From assembly GCA_964444765.1 (NCBI GenBank), contig CAYUID010000001.1:1-27097 (forward strand): DNA of 27,097 nt. The letters run 5' to 3'. The translations under genes and the position numbers were made by a program. Shown piece by piece: positions 7,024 through 13,352 of this stretch. Origin of the DNA: an uncultured Candidatus Saccharibacteria bacterium. Its GTDB lineage: Bacteria; Patescibacteriota; Minisyncoccia; Phycocordibacterales; DATDWN01. Position 1 is the first letter of the stretch, and each line of letters opens with the position of its first letter. A model generated the notes under the pieces. That model worked only from the letters and a program-made list of their open reading frames with translations, had not been told where the DNA came from and did no database searches.

Positions 7024-8165
7024 TTTTTATTGAGTTCGTCGGATATGGTTTTGGTAAGTATCGGAGCGGCTGTGCTGGCAAAAATTTGGCCAAACTCTTT
7101 TGGATCCTGAAGTAAAAACTGAAACAAACTCATTTTCAGCTCGCTTTGCAGTTCTCTGTTTATATAAGGCACAGTAATAGCATTCAAAGCTCTGTCGCTT
7201 GTGCTGTTTGCGTCAGAACTGGTTGTAATTATGCCAAGGAGAGTCCCATTTTTATCTATGACCGCTCCGCCAGAAGAGCCTTTTTGAGAAACAACAGTAC
7301 CGCCGACTGCGATTACATCAACTGTGTTAGCTTTAAATGTAAAAACATCTTGAATTCTTGTCGTAGCGCTAGTTATACTCAAATCTTGGAGAATGGAAAG
7401 GCCTCCTAGGAAGCCAGCAGGGTAGGAGACCAGAAGGACAGGAGAGTTTTTATTTATATTCTCACCAATATTTGGAACAATAAAAGGAAAACTGCTTGGC
7501 AGATTTGATCCATCTGTCATCTCGCTTATTCTCAAAAATGAATAGTCATGCTCTCCAGTGCCTTTTGGGTCGCTTTGTTTCAATAAATCTTTATTATCCG
7601 CGACCCAACTTGGGGAAATGAAAACCAAATCCAACTTGTAGCGAGGGTAAGCGGGACTTCCTGTTCTAGCCACACAACTTATATAATTTTTCTCTCTCAA
7701 GTCTTTCAGTAGGAGATATTGTCCAATATGGGCGTTGGTCAGTATGAGTCCATCGCCATTTATAATTACCCCGGTACCGGAAATAGGGGAGAGATCACCA
7801 TACTTTGTTGTACATAAAATATTTATCAAAGCGCTTCTGGAGGATGAATTTATGTTAGTAAAGTCTACATTTTCTTCAGAAATAAATATGTTTTGAGGTG
7901 TAGTACTGGCAGGGAAAATAGTCAATGTTGGTTTTTTCTCTGGTTCAGCCTTTTTTGCCTTAACCTCTTTTTTTAAAGTTTTTGTCGAGGTGGCAGATGA
8001 TGAATCACTCAAAACAATTTTTGGAGAAGTGGTGGCAACTTGCTGTTTTAATACCGGCGCGTCAGATTTATTTGTTGGGGCGTTTAATAAGCCCAGGATT
8101 ACAAAGGTTTGGATTAAGAGGGAGGAAAGAAGTTTCTTTAAAAACATTTCTAAATTATACATCAC
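7020..8165 (-). CDS. secreted/membrane-anchored trypsin-like serine protease
   Basis: Hydrophobic N-terminus and Ser/Thr-rich linker. Catalytic triad motifs LTNAH, HDYSFL, KGSSGGAV. Start may be at 8147. Confidence 0.8.
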   Translation of the reverse strand: MMYNLEMFLKKLLSSLLIQTFVILGLLNAPTNKSDAPVLKQQVATTSPKIVLSDSSSATSTKTLKKEVKAKKAEPEKKPTLTIFPASTTPQNIFISEENVDFTNINSSSRSALINILCTTKYGDLSPISGTGVIINGDGLILTNAHIGQYLLLKDLREKNYISCVARTGSPAYPRYKLDLVFISPSWVADNKDLLKQSDPKGTGEHDYSFLRISEMTDGSNLPSSFPFIVPNIGENINKNSPVLLVSYPAGFLGGLSILQDLSITSATTRIQDVFTFKANTVDVIAVGGTVVSQKGSSGGAVIDKNGTLLGIITTSSDANSTSDRALNAITVPYINRELQSELKMSLFQFLLQDPKEFGQIFASTAAPILTKTISDELNKN

Positions 8166-8234
8166 TGAAAATACAATCTAAATCAGGATTTATTAATTGC
8201 GAGAGCCATTTTTTTCTGATAACATGAGCCAATC

Positions 8235-8308
8235 GCGGGATTAGTTTATCGGTAAAATAACAGTTTTCCAAACTGTGGTGAGCGGTTCGACTCCGCTATC
8301 CCGCACCA
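8235..8308 (+). tRNA. tRNA-Gly(TCC), CCA encoded
   Basis: Acceptor GCGGGAT/ATCCCGC-A-CCA, anticodon arm ACAGT-TTTCCAA-ACTGT, T arm GCGG-TTCGACT-CCGC. Confidence 0.95.
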
Positions 8309-8450
8309 AAAGCGTAGCTTTTGCGTGGCGGAGTCGAACCGGATTGTCGGTCCACGAACCTAGTAGGGTTTGTCGACAATCCGGCGCCTAGAATTTTCTT
8401 GAGTGACGACGAAGGAAAATTCGGAGGGCGAATCTCCGCTATCCCGCACC
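8309..8450 (+). repeat. 143-bp palindromic tRNA-associated mini-element
   Basis: Hairpin AAAAGC/GCTTTT, 14-nt antisense copy of the T arm (8328-8341), 11-bp IR 8339-8349/8374-8384, AATTTTC..GAAAATT hairpin, then a 17-bp duplication of the tRNA 3' end (8434-8450 = 8291-8307). Confidence 0.75.
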
Positions 8451-8481
8451 GACATAAAAAGAATTTCCGAATAAGAATTAA

Positions 8482-8985
8482 ATGGAAATAAAATCTCAAT
8501 TTGAGAATAGGAGTAAAACTTATAAGGTTATCTACAATGATGGAGTTCCTAAGACTGAAACTGACCCTAAAATGCTAGATGGCGTTCATACTTATTGTTT
8601 TTATGGTGATAAGTTGGTCATTGTCAGTTCAGCTGAAAACCATTGGACTCCCCCAGGTGGAGCAATAGAAAAAGGAGAAACATATTCCGAAGCAGCTGTT
8701 AGGGAGATAAAAGAAGAATCAAACATGAATGTTTTGCGAATGGAATGTATTGGTTATCAAGACATTGAAATTCCCTGGGAAAGCAGAACAATAAGACAAT
8801 TTAGAATGTTTGCCATTGTTGAACCAGAAGGAGAATTTGAATCTGACCCAGACGGAGATATTTTTGAAATAAAGCTAATTAACCCAGAAGACTACAAAGA
8901 ATATATTAAATGGGGTGAAGTTGGAGACCACCTTATGAAAAGAGCATTGGAATTGAAGACTAAGTATAATAACTCTAAATTCTAA
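8482..8985 (+). CDS. NUDIX hydrolase (cargo of unit 2)
   Basis: Nudix box GGAIEKGETYSEAAVREIKEES. Confidence 0.88.
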   Translation: MEIKSQFENRSKTYKVIYNDGVPKTETDPKMLDGVHTYCFYGDKLVIVSSAENHWTPPGGAIEKGETYSEAAVREIKEESNMNVLRMECIGYQDIEIPWESRTIRQFRMFAIVEPEGEFESDPDGDIFEIKLINPEDYKEYIKWGEVGDHLMKRALELKTKYNNSKF

Positions 8986-8994
8986 TCATCTTAA

Positions 8995-9087
8995 CTAGAC
9001 TTTAGCTTCTGTTAACGATAATCTAGGTATATAGAAAATGGCGTTAGACTCTAGAAAACAGGTTCTAACGTCATTCACTATCCCGCA
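8995..9087 (-). pseudogene. start-less C-terminal protein tail crossing the att core (copy 1)
   Basis: Translates CGIVNDVRTCFLESNAIFYIPRLSLTEAKV*. No in-frame ATG upstream before a stop. Confidence 0.65.
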
Positions 9088-9094
9088 CCAAAAG
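9078..9094 (+). repeat. att-like direct repeat of the tRNA-Gly 3' end
   Basis: CTATCCCGCACCAAAAG, identical to 8296-8312. Confidence 0.9.
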
Positions 9095-9209
9095 TGTAAA
9101 TTTCTAACGTTTTTCTGAAAGTGTATGAATCTGTAACGATTCTTGGCGGTTATACTCTAGTTGTATAGAAATACAGAAGACTGATAGTTTTTGGACATGA
9201 ATATTGATT

Positions 9210-9266
9210 TTATGTTGATAAATATACGGTTTCATTAGTTTTTACTGCGGTTCTAACTTTAACGAA
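9210..9266 (-). pseudogene. possible third, degenerate tail relic
   Basis: Shares GGTTCTAAC (9249-9257) with both tails and translates FVKVRTAVKTNETVYLST*. It has no att core. Confidence 0.3.
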
Positions 9267-9268
9267 AA

Positions 9269-9290
9269 GGCCACCAGTATTCCGGTGGCC
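9269..9290 (-). terminator. intrinsic terminator of the HTH gene
   Basis: GGCCACCGG-AATA-CTGGTGGCC followed by TTTT on the - strand. Confidence 0.8.
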
Positions 9291-9306
9291 ATTCTCACTT
9301 GATTTG

Positions 9307-9690
9307 CTATTTCTGTGACAGCAAATCAAGTGCCGTATCCAAGTTTATAGGTCCTGATACCTCGACAATTTTAAGAAGGTATTCCAACTCCTCTCTACCA
9401 AGTTTTTTCTTTGGAGACGCAGCTTTGATGGTCATGTTCGGTAGTCCAAGCTTTTCAAGCCACTCCTCATGGTTGAAGCCAAGAACAACCCCGAGAGATT
9501 TCAAAGCCCTTCCTTGGCCTCTCTGTTGGTGGGGAGAGAGCTTGCCGTTTTTTGGCCACTTTTCTTTTTCAATCAAGCAGATGGTTTTTGTGCTGACACC
9601 TGCTCTGATAGCTAATTCTGCTTGGCCAATACCTAGCTGGTCTCTTTTCTCACGAATCATTGCAGAATATTCTCTCAGTTCCTTGATCAT
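9307..9690 (-). CDS. XRE/Cro-family helix-turn-helix protein
   Basis: IREKRDQLGIGQAELAIRAGVSTKTICLIEK HTH pattern, GAGGGAG RBS, about 53% GC in a sampled line. Confidence 0.8.
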   Translation of the reverse strand: MIKELREYSAMIREKRDQLGIGQAELAIRAGVSTKTICLIEKEKWPKNGKLSPHQQRGQGRALKSLGVVLGFNHEEWLEKLGLPNMTIKAASPKKKLGREELEYLLKIVEVSGPINLDTALDLLSQK

Positions 9691-9712
9691 TTTCTCACTC
9701 CCTCTTTCAAGA

Positions 9713-9786
9713 ATTATAGACTAAAGTATTAAATTGTCAACTAGTGTCGGACAAATGTTGACATTATTTTGACAACAGACTATACT
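9713..9786. promoter_or_regulatory. back-to-back sigma70 promoters
   Basis: - strand TTGACA(9740-9735)-16 nt-TATAAT(9718-9713). + strand TTGACA(9758-9763)-17 nt-TATACT(9781-9786). Confidence 0.85.
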
Positions 9787-9792
9787 GAGGAT

Positions 9793-10542
9793 ATGAAAGA
9801 AATTTTGGAAAATCTTGGCTTAAATAAAGGCGAAATAAACGTCTATTTAGTAGTTTTTAGAAATAAGAGAATTAAACCTGTTGAACTATCTAAGCTAACA
9901 AAAATCAAAAGGACTACGATATACAACATTACCAAATCTTTAGTTTCTAAAGGTCTTATTGTTGAAGATCTTGGTAAAGGGAAAAAGGAATTTGTCTTGG
10001 CAGATTCAAATGATATCAAATTAGTTTTAAGAAAAGAGGAAAATGACTTTAAGAAAAAGGAGGAATTGTTTAAAAGAATAATAGATGATCTAGAGGATTC
10101 TAACATTGGCAAGAGTTATAATCCTCCAAGAATAAGGTTTATTGAAGAGGATAAGGTAGGAGATTATATGATTTCAAGAAATAAAGTATGGAATGACAGC
10201 ATTCTTAAACATGATAATCATTGGTGGGGTTTTCAGGATCATACTTTTTTAGATAAATATACAAAATGGGTGGATTCTTTTTGGAAGCAGGCTTCAAAAG
10301 ATCTAAAACTCAAACTTTTGAGTAACGAATCTGATATAGAAAGGAAAATTAGAGGGAAATATCCAAATAGAGAAATCAAATACTGGAATAAAGGCAATTT
10401 TACCGCTACCACTTGGGTAGTGGGTGATTACCTTGTTTTAATTAGAACAGATAGTCATCCATTTTATTTAGTAGAGATACATGACTCTGTCCTCGCAAGC
10501 AATATGAGGGAATTATTTAAGAATATATGGGGAATAGTTTAA
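9793..10542 (+). CDS. TrmB-family winged-helix transcriptional regulator
   Basis: LENLGLNKGEINVY..ELSKLTKIKRTTIYNITKSLVSKGLI wHTH plus a C-terminal effector domain. Start moved to ATG 9793. Confidence 0.82.
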   Translation: MKEILENLGLNKGEINVYLVVFRNKRIKPVELSKLTKIKRTTIYNITKSLVSKGLIVEDLGKGKKEFVLADSNDIKLVLRKEENDFKKKEELFKRIIDDLEDSNIGKSYNPPRIRFIEEDKVGDYMISRNKVWNDSILKHDNHWWGFQDHTFLDKYTKWVDSFWKQASKDLKLKLLSNESDIERKIRGKYPNREIKYWNKGNFTATTWVVGDYLVLIRTDSHPFYLVEIHDSVLASNMRELFKNIWGIV

Positions 10543-10634
10543 TTGATTTTAACTTCAGTCAGAGATAAACTTGGGATATAGAATTGACTAGGACTGTAGA
10601 GAAAAAAGGTTCTAACATCATTCACTATCCCGCA
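10539..10634 (-). pseudogene. start-less C-terminal protein tail crossing the att core (copy 2)
   Basis: Translates CGIVNDVRTFFLYSPSQFYIPSLSLTEVKIN*, 22/30 identical to copy 1. Confidence 0.65.
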
Positions 10635-10636
10635 CC
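10625..10636 (+). repeat. distal att-like direct repeat
   Basis: CTATCCCGCACC, preceded by the same GGTTCTAACRTCATTCA as the 9078 copy. Confidence 0.88.
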
Positions 10637-10652
10637 GAAAGCGGAGTTTTTA

Positions 10653-10694
10653 AGTAGTTCAAAAAAGCGCTTTTTGGCGCTTTTTTGAACTACT
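10653..10694. terminator. bidirectional terminator
   Basis: Perfect 18-bp IR AGTAGTTCAAAAAAGCGC/GCGCTTTTTTGAACTACT between convergent trmB and hup. Confidence 0.85.
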
Positions 10695-10708
10695 AATCTA
10701 GAACAGTT

Positions 10709-10981
10709 TTATTTAACTGCTTCCTTCAGAGCTTTTGCTGCTCTAAACTTAGGCACTTTCATTGAAGGAACGGAGATAGTCTCACCAGTTCGAGGGTTTC
10801 TAGCTTGTCTAGCTGCTCTTGTTTTTGTTGAGAAAATTCCAAGACCAGCCACCGAAACTTCTCCTCCCTTCTTTAATGTATCAACTATGGAGTTAATCAT
10901 TAAATCAACGACTTCCTCTGCTTGAACTTTCGTTCCGCCGAGTTTTTCGTGTACTGCGTCTACGATTGATGCTTTATTCAT
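10709..10981 (-). CDS. hup: HU DNA-binding protein
   Basis: MNKASIVDAV, VAGLGIF, RQARNPRTGE, PKFRAAKALKEAV. Confidence 0.95.
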   Translation of the reverse strand: MNKASIVDAVHEKLGGTKVQAEEVVDLMINSIVDTLKKGGEVSVAGLGIFSTKTRAARQARNPRTGETISVPSMKVPKFRAAKALKEAVK

Positions 10982-11078
10982 ATTTTGTTCTCTTAATAAA
11001 AAATAAACTAAACCAATCTACTACAAGCTATTATATAGCAAGGCTTTTTTGGCGCAACATATTGACAGACAGCTAAAT

Positions 11079-12608
11079 CTATCTCGCAAATTCGATGTTT
11101 CTGGACTCTCTTATGACCGTAACTTTGATTTCTCCAGGGTATTTTAGCTCTGATTCTATTCTCAGGGCTATGTCCCTGGCCATTTTCTTCGCTTCTAGGT
11201 CTGTTACATCAGTCGGAGTAACAAAAATCCTTATTTCTCGGCCTGCTTGGAGAGCATAAGCCTTCTCAACCCCTTTAAATGAAGTAGCCACAGCTTCTAA
11301 ATCCTTCAGTCTCTTTAGGTAATTTTCTATGCTGTCCCTTCTTGCCCCAGGTCTGCCTCCTGAAATAGCATCTGCTGACTGTACGATCATGGATTCAAGG
11401 GTTTCGTAAGGATATTCCTCGTGGTGTGACTGCATGGCTTTGATTACTGCCTCATCAGCACCAAATTTTTGCAGGATTCTTCTGCCTATCTCGACATGGG
11501 TGCCGACTACCTCATGGTCCAGGGCTTTTCCTATGTCATGAACCAAGGCACCAGCTTTGGCTACAGCCACATTTGCCCCAATTTCTTCGGCTATCATGCC
11601 GGCAATATGAGCCATTTCTACCGAATGAGCCAAAACGTTCTGGCCGTAGCTTGTTCTAAAGTGAAGCCTGCCGAGGATAGAAACAATTCTTGGATCAAGG
11701 CCAAGGACACCGGTTTCATAAACTGCCTCCTCACCCTTTTCCTTAATAGTTTTGTTTATTTCTTGCTCTGAAACTTTGACCATCTCCTCAATTTTAGCTG
11801 GTTGAATTCTGCCATCAGCCACCAGTTTCTCAAGAGCATTCTTAGCGATCTGTCTTCTGACTGGATCAAAAGATGAAATGGTGATTGAACCAGGAGTATC
11901 ATCAACAATAACCTCAACCCCAGTAGCTCTTTCAAAAGCTTTTATATTTCTTCCTTCCTTTCCAATAATTTTCCCTTTTATCTCATCAGAGGGGATAGCT
12001 ACATGGCTTGTTAGCATGTCGGATGAGACAGAATTGGACAATCTCTGGATCGAAGTGGCCAAAATTGACTTGGCTTTCTCTTCCAATCTCTCTTGTCCAA
12101 CAGTTTCCATTTTTTTCATTCTAACCAAAATATCTTCCTCAGATGACCTTTCAACAGATTTTAGTATTTCTTCTTTGGCTTCAGAAGAAGTCATCCTTCC
12201 TATCTTTTCAAGCTCGTTTGTCTTTCTGGCCTCGATCTTTTCGGCATTTTCTCGAATAGCCCTGACCTCTTGGATTCTCTTCTTTATCTCTTCGACTTCC
12301 TTGTCAATTTCTGTTTGCCTATGATCAAGAAGCTCGTCTTTTTTGACCAGACGATCTTCTGTTTTTTTGTTATCCTCCTCTTTTTGTTTTATCTCAACCC
12401 TCGCGACTTTGAGCAGGTCCTCTGCTTTTTTCTCTGCTTCGTCTATGATTTTCTTCTCCCTATCTTTGGCCTCGAGCATCATCTGCTTTATGTCGAGTTC
12501 CATCGAACCTTTCTTACCCAAGGAAATTATGAGACGCAAATAATAACCCAAGCCAAGTGAGATTAGGGATGATGCGGATAGAAGCAGAGCAACTAATTTT
12601 AATGACAT
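11079..12608 (-). CDS. rny: ribonuclease Y
   Basis: N-terminal TM segment, coiled coil, KH domain (KGKIIGKEGRNI), HD domain (LVHDIGKA), RPGARR motif. Confidence 0.97.
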   Translation of the reverse strand: MSLKLVALLLSASSLISLGLGYYLRLIISLGKKGSMELDIKQMMLEAKDREKKIIDEAEKKAEDLLKVARVEIKQKEEDNKKTEDRLVKKDELLDHRQTEIDKEVEEIKKRIQEVRAIRENAEKIEARKTNELEKIGRMTSSEAKEEILKSVERSSEEDILVRMKKMETVGQERLEEKAKSILATSIQRLSNSVSSDMLTSHVAIPSDEIKGKIIGKEGRNIKAFERATGVEVIVDDTPGSITISSFDPVRRQIAKNALEKLVADGRIQPAKIEEMVKVSEQEINKTIKEKGEEAVYETGVLGLDPRIVSILGRLHFRTSYGQNVLAHSVEMAHIAGMIAEEIGANVAVAKAGALVHDIGKALDHEVVGTHVEIGRRILQKFGADEAVIKAMQSHHEEYPYETLESMIVQSADAISGGRPGARRDSIENYLKRLKDLEAVATSFKGVEKAYALQAGREIRIFVTPTDVTDLEAKKMARDIALRIESELKYPGEIKVTVIRESRNIEFAR

Positions 12609-12614
12609 GTTTGC

Positions 12615-12770
12615 GGAAATCCGCCCTAGTTTTTTCTAAGTTTTACTATTATTTCTATTTAACCTTTCAGAAAACAAGAATTTCGGAGTGGTTTGCCAGC
12701 CAGGAAGTATTCTAGGAAAAAATTTAAAAGCGAACGGTGTTAATTATTGATTAAGTTGAACATTCTTACT
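12615..12770 (-). ncRNA. possible 6S RNA upstream of rny
   Basis: 171-nt gap without an ORF upstream of rny, a known syntenic position for 6S in several phyla. Weak GTTCG and GAAAGGTT-like motifs. Structure not convincingly resolved. Confidence 0.2.
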
Positions 12771-12779
12771 ATATATCCT

Positions 12780-13352
12780 CTAGAGAACTTTGTCTATTAT
12801 GCCGTATTTTTTGGCATCTTCTGCCGACATCCAATAATCTCTATCCATGTCTTTCTCAACTTGTGCAATTGGTTTGCCAGTATTTTTTGAGAAAATTTTA
12901 CCCAAGTTTTCCTTATTTTTAAGCATTTGTTTTGTTGAGATCTCTATATCAGAAACCTTTCCTTCTATTCCTCCTCCCCAAGGTTGATGGATCATTATTT
13001 CGGCATTTGGAAGGGCAAATCTTTTACCTTTCTTCCCAGAGGCTAGTATATGAGCTCCCATTGATACGGCCATACCTACGGCAAGAGTAGAGATGTCGTT
13101 TTTTATATGATTCATGGTGTCAATAATTGCAAGGCCTGCAGTAACTGAGCCTCCAGGGGAATTTATGTAAAATGAAATATCCTTTTTTGGATCCTCGGAC
13201 TGTAGAAATAACATTTGGGCAATTATCAAATTTGCCACATGGTCGTCTATAGGACCATCAAGAAATATAATATTATCCCTCAAAAGTCTGGAGAAAATAT
13301 CGTAAGCTCTCTCTCCAAATTGTGATTTTTCTATAACTGTTGGTATTAACAT
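12780..13352 (-). CDS. clpP: ATP-dependent Clp protease proteolytic subunit
   Basis: [25 protein letters not shown] (catalytic S), IMIHQP (H), DMDRDYWM (D). Confidence 0.97.

Follow-up and report, generated by a model that had tools for sequence, protein, structure and literature searches.

Introduction

The attachment (att) sites of large serine recombinases (LSRs) are short (40–50 bp), with a central 2-bp crossover and neither arm sites nor host factors. In phiC31, Bxb1, A118 and SPbeta, attP lies beside the integrase gene (int) rather than inside it, and the targets are protein genes or intergenic DNA. Here, we describe a stretch of 27,097 nt (the window, meaning the whole stretch that was analysed), which is contig C1 of the genome assembly (505 kb, 83 contigs, 79% completeness) of an uncultured Candidatus Saccharibacteria bacterium whose relatives have genomes of 0.4–1.5 Mb, a size in keeping with bacteria of the Patescibacteria type. 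Behind its tRNA-Gly(TCC) gene stand two short minus-strand reading frames, here called tails A and B, which are very probably the displaced native 3′ ends (the last ~30 codons) of LSR genes from integrative elements.

In myxophage Mx8, attP reportedly lies in the 3′ part of int, so that integration exchanges the integrase C-terminus and turns intP into intX. The Islander paper (2014; PMC4383910) likewise has Mx8 Int extending across attP, and it states that serine integrases were not known to target tRNA genes. In the ssrA islands of Dehalococcoides, the 3′ end of dsiB, a serine integrase gene, invariably overlaps attL, and it has been proposed that the gene may be whole only in the circular form or when an adjoining island contributes the 3′ fragment (McMurdie et al., 2011; PMC3146451). 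The "suicidal" archaeal integrases of SSV1, pTN3 and pT26-2 have attP inside the gene, which is partitioned by integration into a tRNA gene so that the fragments border the element; an intact copy is needed for excision, and according to a review such integrases are known only from archaea (PMC8371274).

Two short frames in the window

The two frames are as follows.

8995–9087, minus strand: tail A, probable displaced last 30 codons of an LSR gene, CGIVNDVRT..FYIPRLSLTEAKV and stop; hidden Markov model (HMM) match 7.7e-21, tblastn matches to the LSR C-termini of the proteins P0060 and P0006

10539–10634, minus strand: tail B, probable displaced last 31 codons of an LSR gene, CGIVNDVRT..FYIPSLSLTEVKIN and stop; HMM match 4.2e-23

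Translated up to their stops, they read CGIVNDVRTCFLESNAIFYIPRLSLTEAKV (9087–8995) and CGIVNDVRTFFLYSPSQFYIPSLSLTEVKIN (10634–10539). Tails A and B share 22/30 residues without indels, and eight of the identical residues (D, L, S, I, P, S, L and T) use differing codons. The open frames around them (9156–8995 and 10649–10539) contain no ATG, the single start-type codon in each being a GTG (9078 and 10625, respectively). Translations, shared residues, synonymous codons and the lack of an ATG reproduce exactly what a preliminary description, made from the sequence alone, had reported. The stop of tail A comes one codon earlier than in relatives, and upstream of tail B there is only chromosomal flank with five open codons. 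A copy of the tRNA-Gly(TCC) gene's 3′ terminus, CTATCCCGCACC, stands directly right of both tails (9078–9089 and 10625–10636).

Parent genes of the tails

When 1.84 billion representative proteins were searched with a profile of the tail, 169 protein clusters matched at E ≤ 1e-3. Most are short open reading frames (ORFs), and in almost every one the matching part is the extreme C-terminus. In several of them, the part fused to the tail belongs to an LSR. P0093 (470 aa) and P0060 (336 aa), both 5′-truncated records, carry the domains Recombinase (PF07508) and Zn_ribbon_recom (PF13408), and P0006, P0056, P0053, P0028, P0046 and P0077 have the post-zinc-ribbon LSR region plus the tail in common. 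Metagenomes hold a graded series of 5′-truncated LSR remnants fused to intact tails (P0006, 235 aa; P0056, 189; P0046, 156; P0053, 133; P0028, 110), which fits progressive decay of junction genes. In another genome (G601:C7), an LSR of 552 aa is intact, has the domains Resolvase, Recombinase and Zn ribbon, and ends in ...VYNVRTIFEEQDEHIYIPDLKLIEVEI and a stop. Together with the loci L078 and L079 it represents the naturally contiguous form of LSR plus tail, and in the contiguous DNA of L078–L080 a tRNA-like core lies inside the ORF, immediately before VVDDVRT.

The Resolvase catalytic domain (PF00239) was found in the LSRs of two further genomes (G324 and G292), in an LSR on contig C2 of the genome studied here and in the tail-bearing LSR of G601 (1.1e-23). 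The architecture of Recombinase followed by zinc ribbon (PF07508, PF13408) with a coiled-coil insertion is also present, and in an AlphaFold model of P0093 two long helices (266–313 and 319–370) follow the ribbon, the mean pLDDT of the body being 86.6. A tyrosine recombinase fold of the SSV1 type (PF16795 / PF00589) was not found in the parent genes. A tyrosine integrase was rejected as parent, as the single PF00589 gene in the genome is Xer-like (464–1384), 7 kb off, and the parents carry serine-recombinase domains. The preliminary description had regarded the frames as tails of a gene split at its att site, probably a recombinase gene. The Pfam domains bear out the recombinase, but the precedents invoked for it (SSV1, Mx8 and BPs) are tyrosine recombinases and serve as analogies only.

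The integrated state and in silico excision

How does an LSR gene of this kind look when its element sits in the target? On contig C2 of the same genome, a 517-aa LSR gene (11226–12779, minus strand) has as its last ~20 codons the antisense of tRNA-Gln(CTG) (locus 11215–12827). This LSR is apparently intact. For attR of this element, neither a second tRNA-end copy in the assembly nor a far end on the 22-kb contig was found. LSR homologs are present in 40 of the 63 genomes of the family, up to eight per genome of 0.6–0.9 Mb, which is strikingly many for such sizes, and of 27 complete LSR ORFs inspected in family relatives, 22 extend in antisense orientation into a tRNA gene at its 3′ end (Gln, Asn, Ser, Tyr, Leu, Thr or Val).

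Two complete elements carry a tail and an LSR gene at opposite ends. A 10.4-kb element in G324:C1 has the tail at one end and a 586-aa LSR reading into tRNA-Ser(GGA) at the other; a 10.2-kb element at tRNA-Asn in G292:C2 has the same layout. The ends share the cores GCGGAG (G324) and GCTCC (G292), with a common codon in one frame in both elements, and excision in silico joins LSR body and tail across the core into continuous ORFs that end ...NCSNW-R-SLVDDVRTYWQTTADRFFIPRLSLESAQIV and ...SIPNW-L-HIVSEVRTYFQTHSGYFYIPDLAK, each followed by a stop. With the attP core inside the ORF, gene fragments at both ends and an in-frame join, the att-split gene that had been postulated as complete in the excised circle is recovered in both elements. 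The integrated LSR of G324 aligns with P0093 and P0006 up to the core and then runs on in tRNA-antisense residues where those continue VVDDVRT. Shared cores of the att sites measure 5–12 nt and the conserved half-site 18 nt. As cargo, the G324 element (L126, 1658–6647) carries an HpaII-type restriction-modification system with Vsr and an SMC/AAA_13 (SMC-like) ATPase.

At nine loci, a tRNA gene (Gly-TCC, Gly-CCC, Ser-GGA, Ser-TGA, Ser-GCT or Asn-GTT) is followed 0.6–8 kb downstream by the tail, which is antisense to it. The order on the tRNA strand is the tail, GGTTCTAACRTCRTYYAC, and then 5–9 nt matching the acceptor 3′ strand of the local tRNA. Since the conserved half-site stays constant while the short core varies with the local tRNA, the half-site belongs to the element and the core to the target. 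Between tRNA and tail, there are genes for NUDIX, XRE and TrmB proteins, a cytidylyltransferase, a type III restriction-modification system and unknown proteins; locus L072 (G266:C1, 10086–17377) holds a type III restriction-modification system and an unknown protein of 938 aa. Like that of the G324 element, also one of the larger elements, this cargo is of a defence type.

Distribution and codon-level constraint

A DNA search over the 63 family genomes found the tail in five others, as full copies in G048, G015, G009 and G008 and as a core-less copy in G022. In 401 genomes of the order, a profile of seven sequences picked out ~25 true tails, and with a profile of 21 sequences tails were found in 50 of 401 sampled genomes of the phylum, often two to five in tandem. 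The consensus is VV(D/N)(D/E)VRTYFQT-xxxx-FYIPxL, followed by 0–12 residues and the stop. Weak profile matches of the type FLRASASSFFIPSLSL in frames of 100–220 aa were discarded, being of low complexity and outside any LSR context. Tandem arrays of two to five orphan tails at 0.3–7 kb spacing, the same architecture as that of the window, occur in other families (L130 in G716:C36, 1016–6000; G492:C10; G824:C29; G688:C127); in G716:C36, five tails stand behind tRNA-Gln(TTG), two of which were read directly.

Purifying selection on the tails had been suggested from the two window copies. Taken by themselves, these differ at 8/6/13 sites in codon positions 1/2/3, a weak third-position bias. In a larger alignment the bias was found both for the last 13 codons (FYIPSLSLTEVKI) of seven family-level copies, with 5/4/12 variable columns, 42/30/111 pairwise differences, pS of 0.71, pN of 0.13 and pN/pS of 0.18, and for FYIPxL in 19 order-wide copies, where the mean column entropy by codon position is 0.47/0.33/1.31. 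The middle eight codons, a linker, are unbiased (pN/pS 0.94). Nearest the core, the VRT codons GTT AGA ACC are near-invariant at all three positions order-wide. The proximal GTT-AGA-ACC word is thus constrained as DNA too, and the distal part as coding sequence. Most simply, the codon-level signal reflects divergence of the parent LSRs, not selection on the orphans of the window, which have lost their LSR.

It is very improbable that conservation acts purely at the level of DNA, with the ~90 nt left of the core forming an arm of binding sites for recombinase or accessory proteins and the frame being incidental. The near-invariance of GTT AGA ACC extends to its flanks, and the word TTCTAAC is repeated at 9063, 9102 and 10610, as might be expected of binding sites; half-sites of LSR att sites do span ~20–25 bp from the crossover. 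Beyond ~30 nt from the core, however, the variation is dominated by third positions, as the entropy and pN/pS values above indicate. Moreover, the tail frame is open in nearly all copies whereas the complementary plus-strand frame contains stops in most, and the same residues end real LSR proteins, which already contradicts binding-site conservation as the sole explanation.

A stand-alone micropeptide of 27–28 aa starting at the shared GTG, which the preliminary description had offered as an alternative, is hardly credible and has been rejected. The GTG is present in both window copies, the core-less copy in G022 starts with ATG (MSTPLGSNYFQ...), and in G324 and G408 the motif is preceded, at a distance of three codons, by an ATG. 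Nevertheless, the GTG is replaced by TTA in G048 and by GTA in several other genomes of the order, the sole upstream purine-rich stretch (GGGA) ends two bases before it, and start positions are unconserved while the C-terminal position within LSRs is conserved.

Two further candidates were dropped. An RNA structure was rejected, the acceptor-like GGGATA/TATCCC pairing and the GTTAGA/TCTAAC hairpin not being kept in other copies when compared by eye, and so was an integron attC site with GTTRRRY-like words, the inverted arrangement being present in two copies only.

The array behind tRNA-Gly(TCC)

The tails of the window belong to an array, the features of which are as follows.

8235–8308, plus strand: tRNA-Gly(TCC), probable integration target on the attB/attL side, whose acceptor 3′ strand is the repeated core (ARAGORN; Rfam tRNA 61.5 bits)

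8309–8450, no strand: mini-insert of 142 nt, ending in a second 17-nt perfect copy of the tRNA 3′ end at 8434–8450 (repeat families D3 and I3)

8451–9089, plus strand: islet 2, with a NUDIX hydrolase gene (8482–8985), then tail A and a core copy; no recombinase gene (Pfam NUDIX 1.4e-14; repeats)

9061–9089, plus strand: attR-type junction, with the conserved, putative element-side half-site GGTTCTAACGTCATTCAC (a T-loop-like word) and a 12-nt copy of the tRNA acceptor 3′ end (repeats; comparison with other genomes)

9090–9156, minus strand: stub of an LSR body (last ~22 codons) that forms islet 3's left end and continues in frame into core and tail A; upstream stop at 9157–9159 (BLASTP, tblastn)

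9090–10636, plus strand: islet 3, with an XRE-type helix-turn-helix gene (9307–9690, minus strand), a TrmB-like regulator gene (9769–10542, plus strand), tail B and a core copy; no recombinase gene (Pfam; repeats)

10608–10636, plus strand: outermost attR junction, with half-site GGTTCTAACATCATTCAC and a core copy, next to the original tRNA trailer

By repeat analysis, the 3′ end of tRNA-Gly(TCC) re-occurs at 8434–8450, 9073–9089 and 10620–10636, which delimits three insertions. The right border of the array is followed by a terminator hairpin (10653–10694) and an HU gene (10709–10981). The 18-mer of the half-site at the inner junction also precedes copies of Gly, Ser and Asn tRNA acceptor strands in other genomes. 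A Pfam scan of the islets at 8451–9089 and 9090–10636 found NUDIX, XRE and TrmB and no intact recombinase ORF.

What remains of a recombinase gene is the stub. Window positions 9156–8998 are 46% identical to residues 279–335 of P0060 (BLASTP, E 8e-12), and tblastn also matches them to LSR C-termini; the left arm of islet 3 is kept, with indels, in G022. Judging from these alignments, stub, core and tail A are most probably the remnant of an LSR gene that arose where the left end of islet 3 met the right end of islet 2 and of which the remainder was deleted.

A second T-loop-like word, GGTTCGAACC or GTTAGAACC, was noticed ~30 codons upstream of the core, at 9102–9110 in the window, at ~1250–1290 in L078, at ~1640 in L079 and at ~11590 in L126. 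In LSR bodies it encodes VRTS, GFEPA or LEPE, and in L078 it is a perfect hairpin with a 6-bp stem and a 7-nt loop. A second recombinase site is one possible reading of this word, a relic of earlier tRNA capture another.

The mini-insert has no ORF and no tail; it contains an antisense T-arm plus CCA copy at 8326–8341 and long hairpins. A comparable duplication of a tRNA end, of 137 nt, lies behind tRNA-Arg(GCG) in G028:C14 (L116, 10287 and 10424). An Rfam scan of 7900–11000 found the tRNA only, the remaining matches being far under threshold. A Logan contig of run X1 spans 8234–10072 without mismatch, and upstream of the tRNA its next 102 nt are unlike the window (8133–8234), perhaps because of variation between strains or of a join made at the tRNA gene during assembly.

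A model for the displacement of the tails

An outline of the process that gives rise to such tails is as follows. In elements of this lineage, attP lies inside the LSR gene, ~30 codons before its stop. The crossover would fall within a segment resembling a tRNA's acceptor 3′ strand, and the six codons that come after it, V-x-D-V-R-T (GGTTCTAACRTCRTY as read on the strand of the tRNA), double as coding sequence and element-side half-site. Integration into a tRNA 3′ end places the LSR body beside the tRNA gene and antisense into it, so that the protein ends in tRNA-encoded residues, and at the same time moves the true tail to the far end of the island, by the displaced copy of the tRNA end. The full gene is restored by excision or by a second element landing adjacent. 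In the window, three successive insertions behind tRNA-Gly(TCC) left two tails, the LSR genes having presumably been deleted later.

The window tails are accordingly relics, presumably untranslated, rather than genes, because the islets have lost their LSR and only a stub of 22 codons is left; from the sequence comparison, their apparent purifying selection is most simply explained as inherited from active parents. Signs of decay are also seen in the early stop of tail A and in internal TAA codons in G384, G471, G492 and G824.

Several observations weigh against displaced LSR ends as an account of these tails. None of the seven family-level orphan tails has an internal stop or an indel, which is a little unexpected in pure relics and would allow for a degree of use in situ. 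A tRNA-Gly-specific LSR was not found in the 79%-complete assembly, so activity here is not demonstrable, and neither an excised circle nor an empty site was seen, the Logan contigs being at ~4–5x only. The motif is lineage-specific, since in other lineages of LSRs, at Thr and Gln(TTG) tRNAs, the tails are unrelated. In the AlphaFold model of P0093, pLDDT is 41–53 over the last ~50 residues including the tail, with no structural role evident; judging from this model, the tail may be a flexible peptide motif. Scans of other lineages with the tail profile found Gln(CTG) elements with only short N(E/K)(V/I)RTFFQ tails.

Do the tails still work where they lie? They might serve as landing pads that complete the LSR of the next or tandem-neighbour element and would then be selected in situ, arrays keeping recombinases full-length and cassettes mobile. 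McMurdie et al. (2011; PMC3146451) proposed the same for dsiB. Tail A is in frame with the LSR stub of the neighbouring islet, arrays of two to five tails are common in the phylum (five in G716:C36), the graded 5′-truncated LSR remnants carry intact tails, and the lack of stops and indels in the seven family-level tails points in the same direction. On the other hand, the window lacks an LSR body that could be completed, the fused remnants, being truncated, are non-functional, some tails contain stops, and conservation can be explained as inheritance from active parents. We consider this function unlikely.

A related and broader possibility, somewhat less doubtful yet still tentative, is that integration acts as a switch of directionality and life cycle, and that tails kept in tandem turn tRNA 3′ ends into integron-like platforms for cassettes. 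Only the circle or a tandem junction would yield the full-length enzyme with the FYIPxL tail, which would carry out the attP x attB reaction, whereas the integrated gene would give a protein with a tRNA-antisense C-terminus, inactive or of altered directionality. When new neighbours arrive, orphan tails kept behind tRNA genes would make their recombinases whole again. A switch at the level of the protein had already been put forward in the preliminary description.

Comparison with known systems

The evidence supports a phylum-wide lineage of tRNA-targeting serine integrases with attP in the 3′ end of their own gene, a detachable conserved tail and arrays of integrase-less islets. Such a lineage targets tRNA genes across a phylum of tiny-genome bacteria, contrary to the 2014 statement on serine integrases in the Islander paper (PMC4383910). 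Literature searches on serine recombinases in Patescibacteria or the candidate phyla radiation (CPR) gave nothing relevant, the lineage being undescribed there; as their coverage was incomplete, this is weak evidence for novelty. In this lineage, a T-loop-like half-site that is fixed seems to be paired with an acceptor-stem part that varies, and this suggests an easy way of retargeting between tRNAs. In annotation, conserved 30-codon frames by tRNA-end repeats should be entered as 3′ fragments of integrase genes and as boundaries of islands rather than as genes for micropeptides, and this reading also explains integrase-less mini-islands behind tRNA genes, the cargo of which is largely defence and regulatory genes.

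In the architecture of Resolvase, Recombinase and Zn-ribbon/coiled-coil domains and in the short common cores, the lineage resembles phiC31, Bxb1, A118 and SPbeta. With the SSV1 type it shares attP within the integrase gene and the splitting of that gene by integration into a tRNA gene. SSV1-type enzymes, however, are tyrosine recombinases whose catalytic C-terminal domain is separated, while the serine recombinase here loses only the last ~30 residues, which are preceded by complete catalytic and DNA-binding domains. The lineage thus forms a bacterial, serine-family counterpart of the att-split integrases. Unlike Mx8, where a tyrosine recombinase of one phage is concerned, it is a phylum-wide family with arrays of orphan tails.

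The closest precedent is dsiB of Dehalococcoides, which encodes the CcrB-family serine integrase DsiB. In both systems, the LSR gene stands at the left edge of the island with its 3′ end overlapping attL, insertion is into a tRNA-like RNA gene, close to its T-loop and 3′ end, and tandem islands are bounded by direct repeats of the 3′ end of the RNA gene, with a short conserved motif just upstream. They differ in that the Dehalococcoides islands use the single tmRNA gene ssrA, whereas here many different tRNA genes (Gly, Ser, Asn, Gln and others) serve as targets, and the hosts here are tiny-genome bacteria of another phylum. Unlike the Dehalococcoides module, the G324 element carries restriction-modification and ATPase cargo; the companion small serine recombinase DsiA and the other genes of the six-gene module were not searched for. 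Finally, DsiB proteins are reported to have divergent C-termini with no conserved tail shown, whereas a conserved tail of ~30 codons with codon-level constraint is found here. This conserved motif marks the displaced piece, and therefore the suggestion left open for dsiB is made testable.

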